IMG/VR virus record: IMGVR_UViG_3300021387_000141
Location: 1 to 64,000 of that record
DNA: 64,000 bases
Source of the DNA: a virus
Taxonomy: Duplodnaviria > Caudoviricetes
Strand: one strand, 5' to 3'
The notes below the pieces were generated by a model. That model saw only the letters and a list, made by a program, of their open reading frames with translations, searched no databases and was not told the origin of the DNA. The position numbers were made by a program, and so were the translations under genes. Positions 53,312-64,000 of the stretch are shown one piece after another; position 1 is the stretch's first letter; each line of letters starts with the position of its first letter.

Positions 53312-53846
53312 AGGCCGCCATGCATTTTTAGGTGCGAGCAAATACCATTGGATCAACTATGACGAAAGCAAGATCGCTGAAGCATACCGAAATGACCTGG
53401 CAAAAGAACGCGGAACCATATTGCATGATTTTGCTTCCCAGTGTATTCGGCTGAACCAGCGTCTGCCGAAATCCTCGCAGACATTGAACATGTTTGTGAA
53501 TGACGCGATCGGCTATAAGATGCGTTCCGAACAGCCGCTATATTTCAGCGAGAACTGTTTCGGGACCGCGGATGCGATCTGTTTTCGGAAGAACCTGCTG
53601 CGCATCCATGACCTGAAGACCGGTTTCACACCGGCGCATATGGAGCAGCTCTATATTTACAATGCGCTATTTTGCCTTGAGTACCATTTCGATCCGCATG
53701 AGATCGAGACCGAACTTCGTATTTATCAGTCGAATGAGGTCTTATGTGAAGAACCGGATCCGGACAATATTTCTGAAATTATGGAAAAGATCAAAGCTTT
53801 TGACAAAATTTTACGAGATATTCAGCTGAAGGAGAGTGAAGCCTGA
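53283..53846 (+). CDS. PD-(D/E)xK (Cas4/DUF2800-like) exonuclease
   Basis: RGTILH...SEQPLY...FGTADAI...IHDLKTG...QLYIY. Confidence 0.75.
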   Translation: MNFNVHSNLEGRHAFLGASKYHWINYDESKIAEAYRNDLAKERGTILHDFASQCIRLNQRLPKSSQTLNMFVNDAIGYKMRSEQPLYFSENCFGTADAICFRKNLLRIHDLKTGFTPAHMEQLYIYNALFCLEYHFDPHEIETELRIYQSNEVLCEEPDPDNISEIMEKIKAFDKILRDIQLKESEA

Positions 53847-56655
53847 TATGAGCAATAGTACAGCAATTAATATTTTAATTACCATGGCTAAGAAAGCCAA
53901 AAACCCGACGGTCAAGGATATTTTGCTTAGCGCAGCGGACATGAGCGATTCCGATTTTATTATGCATTACGGAACAAAGCGTCACTCCGGACGATATCCC
54001 TGGGGTTCAGGCGACAATCCATATCAGCATGAAATCGATTTTTTGAATCGTGTCCGCAAGATGCGGAACAAGGGATATTCCGAACTGACCATTGCAAAGA
54101 AGTGCGGATATTCTACGACCAGCGAACTGCGTTCCGCAGTCCGTTCGGCCAATAATGACATTTCTCAATATCGTATCCAGTGGGCCAACCAGTTATTAAA
54201 AGATGGCTTGACCCAGACCGAAGCCGCCCGGCGCATGGATATTCCGGAATCGACATTTCGTTCGATCATGGACAAACAGCGACAGGCCCGCGCTAATAAA
54301 GCGCAGTCGACTGCTAATTTTCTGAAATCCGTTGTTGACGAACGCGGCCCGATCGATATTGGTGCCGAAGTCAACCGTGAATTGAATATTTCCAACGAGA
54401 AACTGACACAGGCAGTCGATATTTTAAAGAAGCAGGGTTATGAAGTCCGTGTCGGTTCCATGCCTCAGGTAACGAATGAGCATGGCCAGCGGACGACCCT
54501 TAAAATTTTATGTCCTCCCGGATCTCCGAAGAACCAGGCATATTTGTATGACGATATTTCTCCGTTATTTGACTATGCCAAAGAATATTCTTCTTCCGAT
54601 GGAGGCAAAACTTTCGATAAATTCGAATATCCTGCATCCATGGACTCCAAAAGAATATTTGTCCGATATTTGGAAGACGGCGGTGCGGACCGTGACGGAT
54701 TAATTGAACTCCGCCGCGGTGTTGAGGATTTATCGCTCGGCGGTTCCCGATATTCTCAAGTCCGAATATTAGTGGACGGGAATAAATATATGAAAGGAAT
54801 GGCCGTATATTCCGACAATATTCCGGATGGCTACGATGTTATTTACAACAGCCGTAAGTCCAGGGAAAAGGGCGAAGACCCGTTTAAGGATATTAAAAAA
54901 GATGACCCGACGAACCCCTTCGGTTCCTATATTTCACCAAGGGGTCAGAGCCATTATATTGACTCGAAGACCGGAGAACGAAAATTATCTCTGATCAATA
55001 AACGTGCCGACGAAGGCGACTGGAACGACTGGTCCAAGTCCCTGCCTTCCCAATTTTTGTCCAAGCAGAACAAGAAGCTGATCGAGAATCAGTTAAATTT
55101 GTCCATTGCTGACAAGATGGCCGAGTACGAGGATATTTGCAACCTGACCAACCCGACCGTAAAGCGCCGATTATTAGAGACCTTTGCTGAGGATTGTGAC
55201 GCGACTTCCGTCCATCTGGACGCGGCTGCCCTTCCCAGACAGCGCTATCAGGTTATTATTCCGCTGCCCTCCCTAAAGAAGGATCAAATTTATGCTCCGA
55301 ATTTTAAGGATGGCGAGAAAGTGGCTTTGGTCCGCTACCCTCATGGCGGGATTTTTGAGATCCCCGTCCTTACCGTAAATAACAAAAATCGGGAAGGGAT
55401 TTCTATATTATCTAAAAATCCGACCGACGCCGTAGGCATCAATATTGAGGCCGCCAAACAGCTGTCCGGCGCGGACTTTGACGGTGACACGGTCATGGTG
55501 ATCCCGTTATCCTCTAAGGTGCAGGTCTCTCACAGACCATATTTGGACGCCCTGAAAGGCTTCGACCCTGAAGTCGAATATCCGAAACGTGAAGGCATGA
55601 AGCCCATGCAGCGTACGGATATTGAGATGGGCAAGATCACCAATCTTATTATGGACATGACTCTTGCAGGCGCCCCTGAAGACGAGGTTGCCCGTGCCGT
55701 CAAGCACTCCATGGTTGTTATTGACGCCAAGAAGCACGAGCTTGACTGGCAGCTCTCTGAAGAACAGAACAAGATCAAGGAGCTGAAGGACAAGTATCAG
55801 GGCCACTATGATGAGAACGGCCGCTGGCGCCATGGTTCGGGTACCATCGTGACCCGTGCCAAGAGCCCGGAACGCGTCACCAAACGCCGTGGTGAGTTCG
55901 ACATCGATCCCGAGACAGGCAAGAAGATCTGGAAGGAAGCCTTCGATGCTCACTACGAAGACGCAAAGGGCAAGCCCAAGACGCGTACTCAGGAAAGCTA
56001 CCGAATGCTCGAGACCGATGACCCTTACAGTCTTGTCTCCGGCATGAACACGCAGACCGAACAGCTTTACGCCCGCTATGCGGCGCAGCTGAAAGCGCTG
56101 GCCAATCAGGCACGTAAAGAGTACAAGTACAACACGCCGAACCTGGAATACAGCCCTTCGGCTCACAAAGTGTACAAGAAGGAAGTCGATTCCCTCACTG
56201 AAAAGCTGCGCCAAAGCCGCTTGAACGCTCCCCGTGAACGTGAAGCGCAGCGCCGCGCCAATGTGCAGCTGGAACGGCTTTTTAAAGAAAATCCGGAACT
56301 CCGGGACGATAAAAAACAAAGAGGCAAATACGCTCAGCAATATTTGACCGCTGCCCGTGTGGCAGTAGGCGCTCAGCGCTATAAGATTGAGATCACGCCG
56401 GCCGAATGGACCGCGATCCAGGCCGGAGCAATATCTGACAGCCTGCTGAAGCAAATATTAGACGCAACGGACACCAATACGGTGCGCGAATACGCGACTC
56501 CGCGCAATTCAGACACCATGTCCAATGCTAAAAAAGCCAGATTATTTTCTCTTCGTCGTTCCGGTTACAGTAATGCGGAGATCGCAGACGCGCTCAATGT
56601 GCCTGTCTCGACGATCCTTTATTACGTACGCCAGGAAAAAGAAGGCAAACTCTAG
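53836..56655 (+). CDS. Putative single-subunit two-barrel (DPBB) DNA-dependent RNA polymerase with terminal HTH domains
   Basis: LSGADFDGD (55468-55488) catalytic loop preceded by LVRYP; QVRI..KG; HSMVVIDAKKH; HTHs TQTEAARRMDIPESTFRS and SNAEIADALNVPVSTI. Confidence 0.72.
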   Translation: MKPDMSNSTAINILITMAKKAKNPTVKDILLSAADMSDSDFIMHYGTKRHSGRYPWGSGDNPYQHEIDFLNRVRKMRNKGYSELTIAKKCGYSTTSELRSAVRSANNDISQYRIQWANQLLKDGLTQTEAARRMDIPESTFRSIMDKQRQARANKAQSTANFLKSVVDERGPIDIGAEVNRELNISNEKLTQAVDILKKQGYEVRVGSMPQVTNEHGQRTTLKILCPPGSPKNQAYLYDDISPLFDYAKEYSSSDGGKTFDKFEYPASMDSKRIFVRYLEDGGADRDGLIELRRGVEDLSLGGSRYSQVRILVDGNKYMKGMAVYSDNIPDGYDVIYNSRKSREKGEDPFKDIKKDDPTNPFGSYISPRGQSHYIDSKTGERKLSLINKRADEGDWNDWSKSLPSQFLSKQNKKLIENQLNLSIADKMAEYEDICNLTNPTVKRRLLETFAEDCDATSVHLDAAALPRQRYQVIIPLPSLKKDQIYAPNFKDGEKVALVRYPHGGIFEIPVLTVNNKNREGISILSKNPTDAVGINIEAAKQLSGADFDGDTVMVIPLSSKVQVSHRPYLDALKGFDPEVEYPKREGMKPMQRTDIEMGKITNLIMDMTLAGAPEDEVARAVKHSMVVIDAKKHELDWQLSEEQNKIKELKDKYQGHYDENGRWRHGSGTIVTRAKSPERVTKRRGEFDIDPETGKKIWKEAFDAHYEDAKGKPKTRTQESYRMLETDDPYSLVSGMNTQTEQLYARYAAQLKALANQARKEYKYNTPNLEYSPSAHKVYKKEVDSLTEKLRQSRLNAPREREAQRRANVQLERLFKENPELRDDKKQRGKYAQQYLTAARVAVGAQRYKIEITPAEWTAIQAGAISDSLLKQILDATDTNTVREYATPRNSDTMSNAKKARLFSLRRSGYSNAEIADALNVPVSTILYYVRQEKEGKL

Positions 56656-57133: not shown

Positions 57134-57170
57134 AATAGCCCTTTGAAGAGTGATTCAAAGGGCTTTGTTT
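57134..57170. terminator. Hairpin upstream of packaging operon
   Basis: agccctttgaa-gagtga-ttcaaagggct, 11-bp perfect stem. Confidence 0.5.
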
Positions 57171-58389: not shown

Positions 58390-58734
58390 ATGGATGAAAG
58401 TATATTGAACTCGATAAAAAAATTGCTCGGTATCGCTGAATTTGATACCAGTTTTGATCAGGATATTATTATTCACATAAATACAATATTAGTAATTTTA
58501 TGGCAGATGGGGGTGGGTCCTACATCCCCTCTTCGAATTTCGGGTCCTGAGGAAAAATGGAGTGATTTTGCGGAAGATTTATCAAAAATTGAGATGGTGA
58601 AGTCTTATATTCACCTAAGAGTGGCACAATTGTTTGATCCGACAACCAGTACAGCGGTAGATGAAAGTCGAAATAATTTAATTAAAGAACTGGAATGGCG
58701 GTTATATGTAAGCGGAGATAGTGATATTTTATAA
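58390..58734 (+). CDS. Head-tail connector (gp6/gp15-like) protein
   Basis: SILNSIKKLLG....FDQDII.HIN...VKSYI.L.V..LFDP...E.EWRL. Confidence 0.6.
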   Translation: MDESILNSIKKLLGIAEFDTSFDQDIIIHINTILVILWQMGVGPTSPLRISGPEEKWSDFAEDLSKIEMVKSYIHLRVAQLFDPTTSTAVDESRNNLIKELEWRLYVSGDSDIL

Positions 58735-59049
58735 TTTAATTGCAATTGCAGATAAAAAAAGTACTGACAGCACTATTATTATAAGCAAAGCGATAATTAT
58801 TTTAAATTCAAAAGAATCTTTATTTGATCGGTATTTAAAATATTTACTTATTTGTTTCGTTTTTTCTTTTTCTTTTTTTAAATAATTTAAAGATTGTTTA
58901 GAGCGTTCTTTTTCTGATAAAAGATGCTCCAAATTGTTTATATCTAAAAATAACTTAGAGCCACAATATTGGCAATATGCTTGTAAATGATCTAAATCCA
59001 AAACTAAATCAGCACCGCATTTTTTACATTTCATTTCGATAGTTTTCAT
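58729..59049 (-). CDS. Zinc-ribbon protein with C-terminal membrane helix; moron-like insertion
   Basis: CKKCG...CQYCG; IIIALLIIIVLSVLFLSAIAI; very AT-rich; opposite strand to the operon. Confidence 0.65.
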   Translation of the reverse strand: MKTIEMKCKKCGADLVLDLDHLQAYCQYCGSKLFLDINNLEHLLSEKERSKQSLNYLKKEKEKTKQISKYFKYRSNKDSFEFKIIIALLIIIVLSVLFLSAIAIKL

Positions 59050-59082: not shown

Positions 59083-59646
59083 ATGGATTTTGACGAATTA
59101 AAACATTGGGGAATCTTTGGTATGAAATGGGGCGTCCGTCGTTATCAAAATGAAGACGGCTCTTTGACAGATGAAGGGCGGGAACATTATAATGTCGGCC
59201 CTGCTAGAACCAAAGGCTATGAACGAGCAGAAGGCAATTTTAATAGAAATCGTTCTGATAATTATAACATTTCTAAAAAAAATAAGAGCTCTATATTTGA
59301 TTCTAAAAACAAAAAACAAAAATTGCCGGAATTAATGTCAGATGATGAATTGTTTAAGATGACAAAAAGATTTAAAAGCCAGGCAAATTTTTATAATGCG
59401 CAAAATGACTATATAAAAAGTAAAGCATATAATGCTGAACTCACCAAAAAGAAAAGCAAATTAGGACAATTTTTAAATAAAATATTAGTCCAACCCGCAG
59501 AAAATGTATTATCAAGAAGTGTTGAATTTGGATTATCTGTAAGTACTGCGGCCTTTCTGGATTCTATAGATTCAAAATATGCAGATGATTATACAAAATT
59601 TGTTCTAAAAAGTGGTAATAAAAATAAAAAGAAAGATGATGATTAA
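59083..59646 (+). CDS. ELxHxG..GMKWG (DUF7211-like) tagged protein 1
   Basis: MDFDELKHWGIFGMKWGVRRYQNEDGSLTDEGREHY. Confidence 0.75.
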   Translation: MDFDELKHWGIFGMKWGVRRYQNEDGSLTDEGREHYNVGPARTKGYERAEGNFNRNRSDNYNISKKNKSSIFDSKNKKQKLPELMSDDELFKMTKRFKSQANFYNAQNDYIKSKAYNAELTKKKSKLGQFLNKILVQPAENVLSRSVEFGLSVSTAAFLDSIDSKYADDYTKFVLKSGNKNKKKDDD

Positions 59647-59651
59647 TTATT

Positions 59652-61382
59652 ATGCTTTCAAATACCGCTACACCACGTTATTACGGCGAATTTCGTCAGA
59701 AAGTTTTGCGGGGTGAAATACCGGTTCCAAAAACCATAGAAATGGAAATGAATCGGATCGATGATCTGATTCGAAACCGTGGAATTTATTATGATGATCA
59801 AGCCGTAGAAGGATTTATTCGTTATTGTGAAAATGAATTGACATTAACGGATGGATCTGATCTGAAATTATTAGACACTTTTAAACTTTGGGCAGAACAA
59901 ATTTTTGGTTGGTATTATTTCGAAGAGCATTCTATTTACGATCCCAAAAAGAAAAGATATGTAAACCGCCGAATAAAGAAACGCCTTGTAAATAAGCAAT
60001 ATTTAATCATTGCCCGTTCGGCTGCTAAATCTTTATATGCATCCTCAATCCAAAGTTATTTTTTAACGGTTGATACGACAACTACGCACCAAATTACGAC
60101 CGCTCCAACGATGAAACAGGCAGAAGAAGTTCTTTCGCCGATTCGTACTGCGATCAGCAGATCCAGAGGGCCTTTATTTTCATTTTTAACAGAAGGCTCT
60201 ATTCAAAATACGACCGGATCCAAAATGGACCGGGTGAAATTGGCGGCAACAAAAAAGGGTGTCGAGAATTTTTTGACCGGATCCCTACTTGAAGTTCGTC
60301 CGATGAGCATTTCGAAACTTCAAGGACTTCGCTGTAAAATCGCGACGGTTGATGAATGGCTTTCCGGTGATATTCGTGAGGATGTGATCGGTGCAATCGA
60401 ACAGGGTGCTGCAAAAGTAGATGATTATTTGATCCTGGCAGTATCTTCAGAAGGAACTGTCCGAAATGGTGCCGGTGATACGATCAAGATGGAATTGATG
60501 GATATTCTCAAAGGAGAATATATTAATCCGCATGTTTCCATTTGGTATTATAAGCTTGACTCAATCGATGAAGTAAATCAACCGGAAATGTGGCCGAAAG
60601 CGAACCCGAATCTTGGCTATACCGTTAGTTACGAAACTTATCAGTTGGATAAAGAACGGGCTGAAAAAGCTCCGGCAGCCAGAAATGATATTTTGGCAAA
60701 ACGTTTTGGTATTCCGATGGAAGGATATACCTATTATTTTACTTATGAAGAAACACTTCCGCATCGTAAACGAGATTATTGGAATATGCCCTGCGCTATG
60801 GGTTGCGATCTGTCTCAGGGGGATGATTTTTGCGCTTTTACATTTTTATTCCCCTTACGCGGAGGAGCTTTTGGCATTAAAACCAGAAATTATATTTCTT
60901 CTACAACTTTAAATAAACTTCCTGCAGCTATGCGTATTAAATACGATAGCTTTATGAATGAAGGGTCTTTGATCGTATTAAATGGTCCGGTCTTAAATAT
61001 GATGGAAGTTTATGAAGACCTGGATGCGCATATTAATCGCTGTGGCTATGATATTCGCTGTGTTGGCTACGATCCCTATAATGCCCGGGATTTTATTGAA
61101 CGCTGGGCATCTGAAAATGGTCCTTATGGAATTGAGAAAGTAAAACAGGGCTCACGGACAGAATCTGTACCTTTGGGAGAATTAAAGAAACTTTCGGAAG
61201 AGCGAATGCTTTTGTTTGATGAAGACCTGATGACTTTTACTATGGGTAATTGTATTACGCTTGAAGATTCCAATGGTAATCGTAAATTATATAAGAAACG
61301 CTATGACCAGAAAATCGATGCTGTTGCGGCTATGATGGATGCTTATATAGCATTTAAACTGAATCGAGAATCTTTTGAATAA
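59652..61382 (+). CDS. terL: Terminase large subunit
   Basis: IARSAAKS Walker A; ATVDEW Walker B; VSSEG; nuclease GCDLSQGDD and KIDAVAAMMDA. Confidence 0.92.
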   Translation: MLSNTATPRYYGEFRQKVLRGEIPVPKTIEMEMNRIDDLIRNRGIYYDDQAVEGFIRYCENELTLTDGSDLKLLDTFKLWAEQIFGWYYFEEHSIYDPKKKRYVNRRIKKRLVNKQYLIIARSAAKSLYASSIQSYFLTVDTTTTHQITTAPTMKQAEEVLSPIRTAISRSRGPLFSFLTEGSIQNTTGSKMDRVKLAATKKGVENFLTGSLLEVRPMSISKLQGLRCKIATVDEWLSGDIREDVIGAIEQGAAKVDDYLILAVSSEGTVRNGAGDTIKMELMDILKGEYINPHVSIWYYKLDSIDEVNQPEMWPKANPNLGYTVSYETYQLDKERAEKAPAARNDILAKRFGIPMEGYTYYFTYEETLPHRKRDYWNMPCAMGCDLSQGDDFCAFTFLFPLRGGAFGIKTRNYISSTTLNKLPAAMRIKYDSFMNEGSLIVLNGPVLNMMEVYEDLDAHINRCGYDIRCVGYDPYNARDFIERWASENGPYGIEKVKQGSRTESVPLGELKKLSEERMLLFDEDLMTFTMGNCITLEDSNGNRKLYKKRYDQKIDAVAAMMDAYIAFKLNRESFE

Positions 61383-61391
61383 GGAGTTTTT

Positions 61392-62033
61392 ATGAATGAC
61401 TATGAATTGAAACATTATAGAACTCCGGGTTCAAAAAACGGAGTTCGCAAGTATCAAAATTATGATGGGACTTTGACGCCATTGGGTTATATACATTATG
61501 GTATAGAAAAAAACGGAAAAAGCTACAGCGGAAATAAAACATTAGAGAAAAAAAGCGGATGGAATACTGTTAAAACTATAAATAAATATAACCCAAGCCG
61601 TTTGCTTAGAGAACCTATTGATATAGCTATAAATATGCATGATGGTTCTAATATAAGAAAACGTAAAAATGTTACGGGCGGAGTATCTATTTCTAAAAAA
61701 GAAAATGATCAAACTGTACAAAATATACAGGAATCTTATAAACCCGTAGAGCAGCAATTAGAGAAAGCTGCACAAGAACATTATGACGGTGTTTATTTGT
61801 CAGATTTAATGAGTAATGCAAACCGTCAAATATTGGCAGCCGGTGATCAATTTGTTCATAGTCCTATCGTTAAAGAAAAAATGATACGAGGTGGTTTTAC
61901 TGAGTCATTGATTAGAGTAATTCAATATTTATCTAAAAATCCGGACGACTATTCTAAAAATAGATCCATTATAAAATCTCCGGCCTATTGGATGAACTTT
62001 GGTGGTAGACCAAGAATTAATCAAACACGATAA
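61392..62033 (+). CDS. ELxH-tagged (DUF7211-like) protein 2
   Basis: YELKHYRTPGSKNGVRKYQNYDGTLTPLG. Confidence 0.7.
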   Translation: MNDYELKHYRTPGSKNGVRKYQNYDGTLTPLGYIHYGIEKNGKSYSGNKTLEKKSGWNTVKTINKYNPSRLLREPIDIAINMHDGSNIRKRKNVTGGVSISKKENDQTVQNIQESYKPVEQQLEKAAQEHYDGVYLSDLMSNANRQILAAGDQFVHSPIVKEKMIRGGFTESLIRVIQYLSKNPDDYSKNRSIIKSPAYWMNFGGRPRINQTR

Positions 62034-62043
62034 AGGAGGTTAT

Positions 62044-62958
62044 ATGCTGGATTTAGTACATACAGATATTTATCCCAATGATGAATTGAAACATTGGGGT
62101 GTTTTAGGAATGAAATGGGGCATCCGGCGTTTTCAAAATCCAGATGGATCATTAACTCCTGAAGGAAGAGAAAGATATGGAGTTAAATCTGCTCATGAAG
62201 CCAGAAAATTATCTTATGCTAAAGAATATTTAGTATTAAAACAAAAGAAAAATAGAACAGAAAAAGAAAATGAACGACTTAAAATCCTTGAAAAAGGAAA
62301 AAAACATTTTGAAAGAAGTATTAATGATGCTGATTATTGGGAAAAAATGAAAGATAATTATAGCTTAGATGAATATGAAGACGCTTCACAGGCTTATCAA
62401 CAATATTTTAATTCTACTAATTATGGTAAAGGCATGAATGAAGCTAAAGCTTTAATGAGCATTCCTACGACTATAATTGGGGCTGCAATAGATGCCGGTG
62501 CTATTTATGCACAATTTAATCTCGGTTCGCCGGTCGCTTTTTATGGTATTCCAACTGCTTTAGGACTTGGAATAGGTGCTAATATTGGTGAATCAAAATA
62601 TGAAGAAAAGCATTTAGAAGAATTAAAGAAAGAATTAAATAGCAATAATACTAAAAATAAAAATTATGAGTTTGAAAAGCATATTGTTAAAAATCCTAAA
62701 AAAGAATTAAATGACTATCACAATAGGCTTGAAAAACGGAGAAAAAATTCAAATTCATCTTATTATCGTGATGCAACAGCTGTTAATTCAGCTGCTAAAA
62801 AGGCAATTGAAATAATAAATGAAGATAAAGCGTATTCAATGGTATTTTCAAACCCTAATTATTATTTAAATAACGGCCAATGGACATTTGAAGGTAAAAC
62901 ATATGGATCTGTAGATGGCCTTGTGAACGCTTTAATAAAAAGTGATGTTATAAAATAA
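62044..62958 (+). CDS. ELxH-tagged (DUF7211-like) protein 3 (start at ATG 62044)
   Basis: RBS aaggagg; DELKHWGVLGMKWGIRRFQNPDGSLTPEGRERY; internal hydrophobic Gly/Ala segment. Confidence 0.75.
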   Translation: MLDLVHTDIYPNDELKHWGVLGMKWGIRRFQNPDGSLTPEGRERYGVKSAHEARKLSYAKEYLVLKQKKNRTEKENERLKILEKGKKHFERSINDADYWEKMKDNYSLDEYEDASQAYQQYFNSTNYGKGMNEAKALMSIPTTIIGAAIDAGAIYAQFNLGSPVAFYGIPTALGLGIGANIGESKYEEKHLEELKKELNSNNTKNKNYEFEKHIVKNPKKELNDYHNRLEKRRKNSNSSYYRDATAVNSAAKKAIEIINEDKAYSMVFSNPNYYLNNGQWTFEGKTYGSVDGLVNALIKSDVIK

Positions 62959-62974
62959 ATCGGAGGAAATTCAT

Positions 62975-63799
62975 ATGTATAGTAATTATATGTATAGTAA
63001 TGCACCTGCATCCAGCCGCAGAGGTGGTGGATCCTGGGTTTATGTAAATGGAGAACTTTATCATTTTGGTATTAAAGGTATGAAATGGGGTGAACATCTT
63101 CCATTTACTGATTATTGGAAAGTTGGCAAGAATGCTTATGGCAATTATATGAAAAAAAACACAACAGTAGGATTTAATAAAGATGCTAACGGTGTAATGA
63201 CAACTTATAATAAAAAGCCTAGCAAGCTTAAAGCTTTTGGATATGCAGTCAATGCAGCTGGTACTTATGCTCGCAATCGAGCTCGTAATGATATTCGTCG
63301 TGCTAAAGACGCCGCTATAAATAAACGTAATGCTATTAACCAGAACATTCGATATAAAACCACAGACCGATATTATAGTAATTTAAATAATTTTTCAGAG
63401 GGCATGAAAAATATGCCGACGTCACATTTGGAAGAACGAATGGGGAAATTGCTAAATAGAGGCAATGATTATATTGAAGCTCTCAAACAGAATCCAAATA
63501 GCGGCATTGCAGTATTGAATTTGGCTATTAAAAATGCACAATTTAATGTACTGAATGGCATTAATAGTTTTCTTAAAAAAACAGGACTTGATAAAAAAGT
63601 AGATAAATTCTTAAGCAAATTCTTGGGTGAATCCAATGCTGTTAAAAGTGCTCGCTTAGCTGAAAAATCTGCTAATTTACCAAAGATTGGACCTACCAAC
63701 ACTCGGGGCTATGATCGTGCCGAAGCTGCTTCGCCAAGTTATACATTTGACACAAGAGTTAAACGAGCTGCTAAAAAACCTAAAGGTGTTTTAGTATAA
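62975..63799 (+). CDS. ELxH-tagged (DUF7211-like) protein 4, very basic
   Basis: GELYHFGIKGMKWG; Lys/Arg/Asn-rich body. Confidence 0.75.
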   Translation: MYSNYMYSNAPASSRRGGGSWVYVNGELYHFGIKGMKWGEHLPFTDYWKVGKNAYGNYMKKNTTVGFNKDANGVMTTYNKKPSKLKAFGYAVNAAGTYARNRARNDIRRAKDAAINKRNAINQNIRYKTTDRYYSNLNNFSEGMKNMPTSHLEERMGKLLNRGNDYIEALKQNPNSGIAVLNLAIKNAQFNVLNGINSFLKKTGLDKKVDKFLSKFLGESNAVKSARLAEKSANLPKIGPTNTRGYDRAEAASPSYTFDTRVKRAAKKPKGVLV

Positions 63800-63822: not shown

Positions 63823-64000
63823 ATGGAGCTAACATTCACAGCCAGGCTGAAACAGGCCTGGAATGCTTTTTTAAATAACAAGGATCCGACAATACCGGAG
63901 TACCGCGATATTGGAACATCATATGCAATTCGTCCAGATCGGCCCCGGCTGACTCCGGGGAATGAGCGCTCCATTATTACTTCGGTATTTAATCGGATTG
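63823..64000 (+). CDS. Portal protein, N-terminal fragment (runs off the window)
   Basis: MELTFTARLKQAWNAF...RPDRPRL..GNERSIITSVFNRI; position after the terminase. Confidence 0.7.
   Translation, partial: MELTFTARLKQAWNAFLNNKDPTIPEYRDIGTSYAIRPDRPRLTPGNERSIITSVFNRI

Follow-up and report, generated by a model that had tools for sequence, protein, structure and literature searches.

The DNA considered here is a window of 64,000 nucleotides at the start of the genome of a gut phage, which measures 90,190 bp and has terminal repeats (IMG/VR record IMGVR_UViG_3300021387_000141). In it, four otherwise unrelated proteins encoded around the terminase gene (p1 to p4) begin with a common peptide of the DUF7211 type, a Pfam family without assigned function. 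Analysis of these proteins and of their relatives makes it moderately probable that this peptide is a lineage-wide tag for loading cargo into the virion, and that the cargo includes the phage's own RNA polymerase; the steps of loading, partner binding, cleavage and ejection are ones that we infer. According to this reading, DUF7211 would act as a short, intrinsically disordered address peptide, lying no more than about 5-25 residues from a free N-terminus, through which accessory proteins, very basic and variable as a set, would be taken into the particle as it assembles, and a diverged form of it would mark the phage's two-barrel RNA polymerase in the same way. The likely partner would be the N-terminal protease/scaffold part of a protease-scaffold-capsid fusion, lining the interior of the procapsid, and the first half of the tag (acidic, x, Leu, x, His) would copy the motif found at five conserved spacer histidines of that fusion. 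Where several tagged units are fused in one chain, the head protease would probably cut between the His and the Ser of a hydrophobic-K-H-S-D site a few residues before each tag; every unit freed in this way would begin with its tag and correspond to the product of a stand-alone gene. The loaded proteins would enter the next host along with the DNA, and the polymerase among them, being already made, could there begin to transcribe from phage-type promoters.

A preliminary description of this DNA had reported an N-terminal tag, likened to DUF7211, on the open reading frames (ORFs) that start at positions 59083, 61392, 62044 and 62975. All four N-terminal sequences were confirmed, and a six-frame regular-expression scan of the complete 90,190 bp found exactly five copies of the motif, all on the + strand and all at the N-termini of real ORFs. 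The family assignment was likewise borne out: the Pfam model PF23847 (DUF7211; 25 positions, gathering cut-off 27 bits) was matched above its cut-off by p1 (34.9 bits) and p3 (30.7 bits), whereas p4 scored 26.4 bits in hmmscan, just below it, and 30.4 bits in a six-frame search. Neither hmmscan nor the six-frame search gave a Pfam DUF7211 match for p2 or for the N-terminus of the polymerase in this genome; p2, the core of which is degenerate (GSKNG in place of GMKWG), was detected by phrog_32444 (E 5e-5) and by a hidden Markov model (HMM) purpose-built from 213 tags (26.7 bits, E 1.6e-6). On their sequences, the p2 tag and the polymerase peptide are best called diverged relatives of DUF7211. 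The tag of p4 is of a KWG-E-HL subtype, and the same KWGKHL subtype occurs in two related loci (L125 and L128); p3 starts at the ATG at 62044, with a ribosome-binding site (AAGGAGG) just 5' of it, has LVHTD before its tag and contains a Gly/Ala-rich hydrophobic stretch.

Beyond the tag, the bodies of p1 to p4 are unrelated, as had been claimed, with no pairwise similarity (blastp E > 1), and net charges are +9 for p1, +13 for p2 and +29 for p4. The pattern known from T4, a short peptide heading unrelated proteins, is therefore what was found, the tag's His lying at residue 5-42 in 143 N-terminal tags. The most conserved part of the tag, G-x-x-G-M-K-W-G followed by R-R-Y-Q-N-x-D-G-S-L-T, comes after that His. 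The tags of p1 and p3 differ at many synonymous sites with their amino acids kept, which indicates that their likeness is maintained at the protein level by selection on the peptide and does not stem from a recent duplication. In an AlphaFold2 model of p1, residues 1-20 are coil (predicted local distance difference test, pLDDT, 47-59), amino acids (aa) 21-40, with the RYQNEDGSLT-EGR part, are confidently modelled as a small turn-helix (pLDDT 82-87), and one long helix (residues 87-161) makes up the body; the near-invariance of the tag, together with the disorder predicted for it here and in the polymerase, fits a linear motif that binds a partner. A literature search found no paper that uses the term DUF7211 and none relevant for 'GMKWG'.

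The tagged genes belong to a module that runs from an exonuclease gene through the polymerase candidate, small genes with an HNH endonuclease, the connector and a reverse-strand zinc-ribbon ORF to p1, which fills the slot between connector and terminase, and then from the large terminase subunit through p2, p3 and p4 to the portal gene. Downstream of the portal lie a 746-aa protease-scaffold-capsid fusion, tail genes and a 5,224-aa tape measure protein. The gene order is the same as in Faecalibacterium phage FP_oengus, whose single tagged gene, gp69, directly precedes its portal gene; no near-identical phage was found in the phage collection. The features are as follows.

53836..56655, + strand: single-chain two-barrel RNA polymerase candidate, 939 aa (phrog_4291, E 0).
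53953..54030, + strand: variant tag at the polymerase N-terminus, DFIMHYGTKRHSGRYPWGSGDNPYQH (sequence, hhalign and homologue alignment).
58390..58734, + strand: head-tail connector, left border of the first tag slot (PF24829, E 1e-30).
59083..59646, + strand: p1, tagged basic protein, 187 aa, tag at 59092-59169 (DUF7211, 34.9 bits).
59652..61382, + strand: terminase large subunit (phrog_9, E 1.5e-109; PF20441).
61392..62033, + strand: p2, protein with degenerate tag, 213 aa, tag at 61401-61478 (phrog_32444, E 5e-5).
62044..62958, + strand: p3, tagged protein, 304 aa, tag at 62080-62157 (DUF7211, 30.7 bits).
62975..63799, + strand: p4, tagged protein, 274 aa, tag at 63050-63091, aa 26-39 (DUF7211, 26.4 / 30.4 bits).
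63823..64000 (continuing to genome position 65091), + strand: start of the portal gene, right border of the second tag slot (phrog_12, E 3.8e-49; PF04860).

DUF7211 is a hallmark of the phage lineage of Lactococcus phage 1706, FP_oengus, Mudcat and ReqiPepy6, and DUF7211 genes were found in the head module of every polymerase-bearing member examined. Tagged genes number 8 in ReqiPepy6 (in which gp015-gp021 form seven tandem tagged genes from terminase to portal), 5 in Bing, 4 in Conley, 3 in Mudcat and 2 in CHPC971. Across 80 viral-contig loci and 23 loci from bacterial genomes or metagenome-assembled genomes, the latter searched with the p1 tag alone as query, 1-7 tagged genes are present per locus, always in the connector-terminase or the terminase-portal slot, and their neighbours are homologues of this phage's genes; the earlier assignment of the tag to head-module proteins is upheld, the tagged genes flanking the terminase both here and in the loci of relatives. 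Where the upstream flank extends over 4.5 kb or more, the polymerase gene was present in every case (29 of 29 loci). A degenerate DNA pattern, used as a query unbiased by neighbours, returned 79 loci with a G+C range of 32-61%, 78 of which carry a lineage marker gene (the exception is only 4.3 kb long), and a profile built from the four tags of this phage drew, out of 1.84 billion proteins searched, 29,521 cluster representatives with E <= 0.001. This phage type also occurs within long contigs (174-544 kb) of Oscillospiraceae, Lachnospiraceae and Christensenellaceae (L102, L104, L113, L118), so that some members may be integrated prophages; the isolates look virulent.

The tagged ORFs differ from other ORFs in their composition. 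Of 252 unique tagged ORFs, with a median length of 192 aa, 94% are net-positive (median +14), compared with 30% of other ORFs, and 24% contain a hydrophobic 19-mer, compared with 11%. The preliminary description had proposed a survey of the cargo domains that carry the tag, and Pfam searches of 74 tag-bearing proteins answered it in part: most hold almost nothing besides DUF7211, the exceptions being two glutamine-deamidase toxin folds (papain-fold), GNAT acetyltransferases, and sigma-70-like (region 3/4) or helix-turn-helix domains. A tagged acetyltransferase is also annotated in Gordonia phage Mossy. Judged by their domains, the sigma-70-like and toxin-domain carriers are candidates for co-injected transcription factors or effectors. 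Tag-plus-body units occur both as stand-alone genes and inside polyproteins; the body of p1 recurs as the second unit of two-tag proteins elsewhere, as does that of p3 in the two-tag proteins P0098 and P0067.

Evidence bearing on the virion itself comes from Lactococcus phage 1706 (GenBank EU081845), the depositors of which annotated as 'structural protein' both orf75, the polymerase homologue, and orf7, a protein of 462 aa encoded between connector and terminase that carries two tags (His 34 and His 183) and a net charge of +39. The ReqiPepy6 record makes the same structural calls, by similarity. These annotations lend support to the earlier claim that the tag loads cargo, the polymerase included, but not to its placement of that cargo in the head as opposed to the neck or tail. 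An untagged 1706 protein of 117 aa from the replication/polymerase region, orf71 (L014:3659-4012), is also annotated 'structural protein', so the tag is not the sole route to such an annotation. A literature search yielded nothing useful on the proteomics of cluster AM or on the fused capsid gene.

Longer relatives carry 2-5 tags per polypeptide among the best-scoring matches, at a median spacing of 233 residues, and these multi-tag polyproteins sit in the terminase-portal slot. An extra His lies 6-25 residues upstream of 172 of 196 internal tags (overall His frequency 1.8%), in the context hydrophobic-K-H-(S/D/G/A)-(D/E). This motif is found again in this phage's own protease-capsid fusion, the spacer of which contains VKHSD, VKHNV and LSHSD. 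In an alignment of 73 such fusions, an otherwise variable spacer keeps its five histidines in 100, 93, 82, 90 and 99% of the sequences; they are placed behind the protease domain, inside the scaffold repeats and directly ahead of the conserved GIDNID-LFP stretch with which the capsid body starts. Since the same motif marks these five conserved histidines, hydrophobic-K-H-S-D is a likely cut site of the head protease; His would precede the scissile bond and a small residue would follow, an arrangement to be expected of maturation sites. A connection of the tag with the prohead protease is plausible. In multi-tag chains the tag's His is as far from the upstream site as it is, in stand-alone genes, from the initiator Met, so that a cut at the upstream site would release units equivalent to p1-p4; because the likely site lies upstream of each tag in multi-tag proteins, the tag would stay on the released unit, unlike the T4 peptide. 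The T4 analogy drawn in the preliminary description would hold for what the system does but probably not for the position and fate of the peptide, the conserved part of which lies downstream of the candidate scissile His. The first half of the tag (D-E-L-x-H) shares its acidic and Leu positions with the spacer sites, and the tag's His is followed by an aromatic residue and then an invariant Gly, whereas a small residue follows at the spacer sites. Within the fusion gene of this phage (genome 65133-67373), a scaffold-like helix, TV-DV---NE-QKAV-YA-IG-AL, is present twice in residues 165-260, with an acidic run and a V-K-H motif behind either copy, and in most relatives only once.

A more specific proposal, to be regarded as tentative, is that the prohead protease, which in this lineage is fused to every capsid subunit, doubles as cargo receptor, the tag occupying its substrate groove as a pseudo-substrate. 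Polyproteins would then be cut between the His and the Ser of K-H-S-D into tag-headed units, and the RNA polymerase would be packed and co-injected via the same receptor. We know of no phage for which an encapsidation route with the protease as cargo receptor has been described, and such a route, if it exists, would be reprogrammable by a peptide of 25 residues.

The variant tag that the preliminary description saw on the putative RNA polymerase was substantiated by a profile-profile comparison: hhalign of 30 polymerase N-termini against 213 tags gave a probability of 93% (P 3.5e-7) over 28 columns, including WG and YQ. Plain HMM matches of the peptide to the tag are weak (E 0.1-7; Pfam E 0.004-0.007 in two relatives). 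The motif lies at aa 40-59 of the GTG frame, the start of the polymerase being uncertain (GTG 53836; ATG 53848, which overlaps the upstream stop in TGATATG; or ATG 53941), and a leader of about 3-40 mostly acidic residues precedes the peptide in 27 polymerase relatives. Twelve residues of the variant tag (H, Y, G, SGRYP, G, SG, Q) are invariant in 19 aligned homologues. In the AlphaFold2 model of the polymerase, residues 1-32 have a pLDDT of about 30 and no secondary structure (protein mean 79), and the N-terminal peptide is unpacked against the enzyme body. The protein has helix-turn-helix modules at both ends and a DFDGD at 55474 that is the sole DxDGD in the genome; the best structural match of its model is QDE-1 (2j7n; Foldseek E 3.4e-7), and the motif and the predicted fold together give it the DxDGD loop and double-psi beta-barrels of the YonO/QDE-1 kind of two-barrel polymerase. 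The family occurs in 250 phage records, from Arthrobacter, Gordonia and Streptomyces phages, the Lactococcus 1706 group, FP_oengus and others, and its gene lies at the right genome end in nearly all rows listed. A tape-measure-fused virion polymerase, as in Thermus phage P23-45, was considered for this phage and rejected, the 5,224-aa protein having no DxDxD motif; that tape measure protein (genome 72198-87872) gave Pfam matches to TMP_3 and DUF2268 (Zn-protease-like) only. Co-variation between polymerase tag and cargo tags within genomes, which is striking in ReqiPepy6 and 1706, is weak and confounded by G+C in 24 genomes and was not used. A strong terminator-like hairpin (57137-57164; 11 pairs, T-rich tail) separates the polymerase operon from the packaging genes, near the site where the genomes of relatives end.

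Several points weigh against the loading of cargo and polymerase by the tag. The virion support is at the level of annotation, and outside the profile-profile test the sequence likeness between polymerase peptide and tag is modest. Cleavage after His is suggested by conservation alone, and since an aromatic residue follows the tag's His, where spacer sites have a small one, the tag itself may not be cut. Roughly one in four tagged proteins has a hydrophobic segment, which may indicate action at a membrane of the infected cell. Furthermore, the tag, the fused protease-capsid gene and the polymerase are inherited together in one lineage, so that their co-occurrence is no proof of a functional link. 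Finally, the terminal position of the polymerase gene in nearly all listed relatives means that, if this end enters first, host transcription could also start the programme.

This last point leads to an explanation that appears unlikely but deserves to be weighed first, namely that the polymerase is not delivered by the particle, that its peptide serves the enzyme itself, and that the polymerase operon, at the genome end that would enter first, is initially transcribed by host RNA polymerase. The extreme right-end position of the gene is in its favour, as is the finding that the stand-alone polymerase of P23-45, gp64, is absent from virions, the injected virion polymerase of that phage being gp96, a protein of 5,002 aa in which the enzyme is fused to the tape measure protein (PMC10770324). 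The genome described here differs in that its tape measure protein lacks DxDxD and its single DxDGD is that of the stand-alone candidate; moreover, the 1706 homologue orf75 is annotated as structural, and the disordered peptide is not packed against the enzyme body in the predicted structure, which speaks against a role in the enzyme itself. A scan for sigma-70 promoters around the polymerase operon gave 22 sites, compared with 16.4 +/- 4.1 in shuffles, and hence no excess.

Two further explanations, each with little probability, would retain the conserved peptide and dispense with its role as an address. According to the first, the motif is only a processing site of the maturation protease, which directs the trimming of a short N-terminal leader, and loading depends on charge or on the bodies. 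The match of the acidic-x-Leu-x-His half to the conserved spacer sites of the capsid precursor would be explained in this way, as would the hydrophobic-K-H-S-D sites before internal tags; it would leave unexplained that the most conserved part of the tag follows the His and is absent from the spacer sites, that the residue after this His is aromatic and not small, and that the bodies are unrelated, so that no other shared loading feature is visible. According to the second, the peptide binds a partner after entry or inside the cell (a host factor, the membrane, the cell wall or a DNA end) and has no part in encapsidation. Conservation combined with disorder is what any linear binding motif typically shows, hydrophobic 19-mers are more frequent in tagged ORFs, and some relatives are annotated 'membrane protein', all of which would be in keeping with such a role; what argues against it is the strict confinement of the genes, in more than 100 loci, to two slots around the terminase of the late/structural module, the structural annotation of two tag carriers in phage 1706, and the upstream cut-site motif that would tie the tagged proteins to the head protease. 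That the shared stretch is merely a DNA-level recombination linker for swapping accessory cassettes at a hot spot, its peptide having no role, is very improbable: gene content is indeed highly variable in the two fixed slots and units are shuffled between genes and polyproteins, but the synonymous divergence of the p1 and p3 tags, the conservation of the peptide across phages of 32% to 61% G+C and its retention inside long ORFs all speak against it.

Two additional features of the region were recorded next to p1. The reverse-strand gene at 58729-59049 (-), the only one in the packaging module, encodes a protein of 106 aa that has a zinc ribbon at its N-terminus and a hydrophobic segment at its C-terminus, and in FP_oengus a reverse-strand gene likewise adjoins the tagged gene. 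A perfect sigma-70 consensus (59164-59193; TTGACA, 18 nt, TATAAT; 12/12) lies within the p1 coding region, directly after the tag and upstream of the terminase gene.

If the address-peptide reading is correct, it would account for the timely arrival in the next host of a stand-alone two-barrel polymerase, of a kind little studied so far, to read phage-specific early promoters, and the co-injected proteins, among them carriers of toxin-like or sigma-like domains, would form a large pool that changes fast. It would also offer a simple means of loading foreign proteins into siphovirus capsids, and the fused protease-capsid gene, which is widespread, would gain a cut motif specific for histidine. 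To our knowledge, very few systems are known in which short peptides send proteins into phage heads. The tag spans phages of Actinobacteria and Firmicutes, including many easily grown phages of teaching collections, and the proposal is therefore directly testable.

Among known systems, the closest likeness is to phage T4, in which the internal proteins IPI-III and Alt, unrelated and mostly basic, carry a short N-terminal capsid-targeting peptide, are packed into the head and are injected. Both systems place a short N-terminal peptide on unrelated basic proteins, here with a candidate link to the prohead protease. They differ in that the T4 peptide precedes its cut site and is removed by the prohead protease, whereas the conserved part of the DUF7211 tag follows the candidate cut sites and would be retained; the two peptides have no sequence similarity, and the present protease, of the HK97/S78 type, forms one chain with the capsid protein. 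The cargo-loading peptides of encapsulins and the C-terminal targeting tail of the HK97 prohead protease are likewise short, disordered segments, which dock inside an HK97-fold shell or onto an assembly partner; these are mostly C-terminal and of other sequences, in contrast to the N-terminal DUF7211 tag, for which docking is proposed only. Virion RNA polymerases, which transcribe the first genes from promoters specific to the phage, are otherwise exemplified by N4 gp50 and by gp66 of the crAss-like phage phi14:2. Gp96 of P23-45 resembles the candidate described here in being a phage two-barrel or related polymerase, the carriage of the present enzyme in the particle being a proposal; it differs in that it is fused to a structural protein, whereas the present enzyme stands alone with a short address-like peptide. 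Variable cargo on a common module, toxin-like domains included, and processing by the prohead protease are also features of the polymorphic MuF-domain toxins found in temperate phages of Firmicutes and of the ejection proteins of phiKZ and SPN3US, which bear propeptides (PMC7411985, PMC10052503). The SPN3US cut motif ends in Glu, in contrast to the His of the candidate site here. No Pfam match to a MuF (Phage_Mu_F / SPP1 gp7-like) domain was found in p1-p4 or in the 74 tag-bearing proteins, and the common module of the present system is a peptide of about 25 residues, not a folded domain such as MuF.

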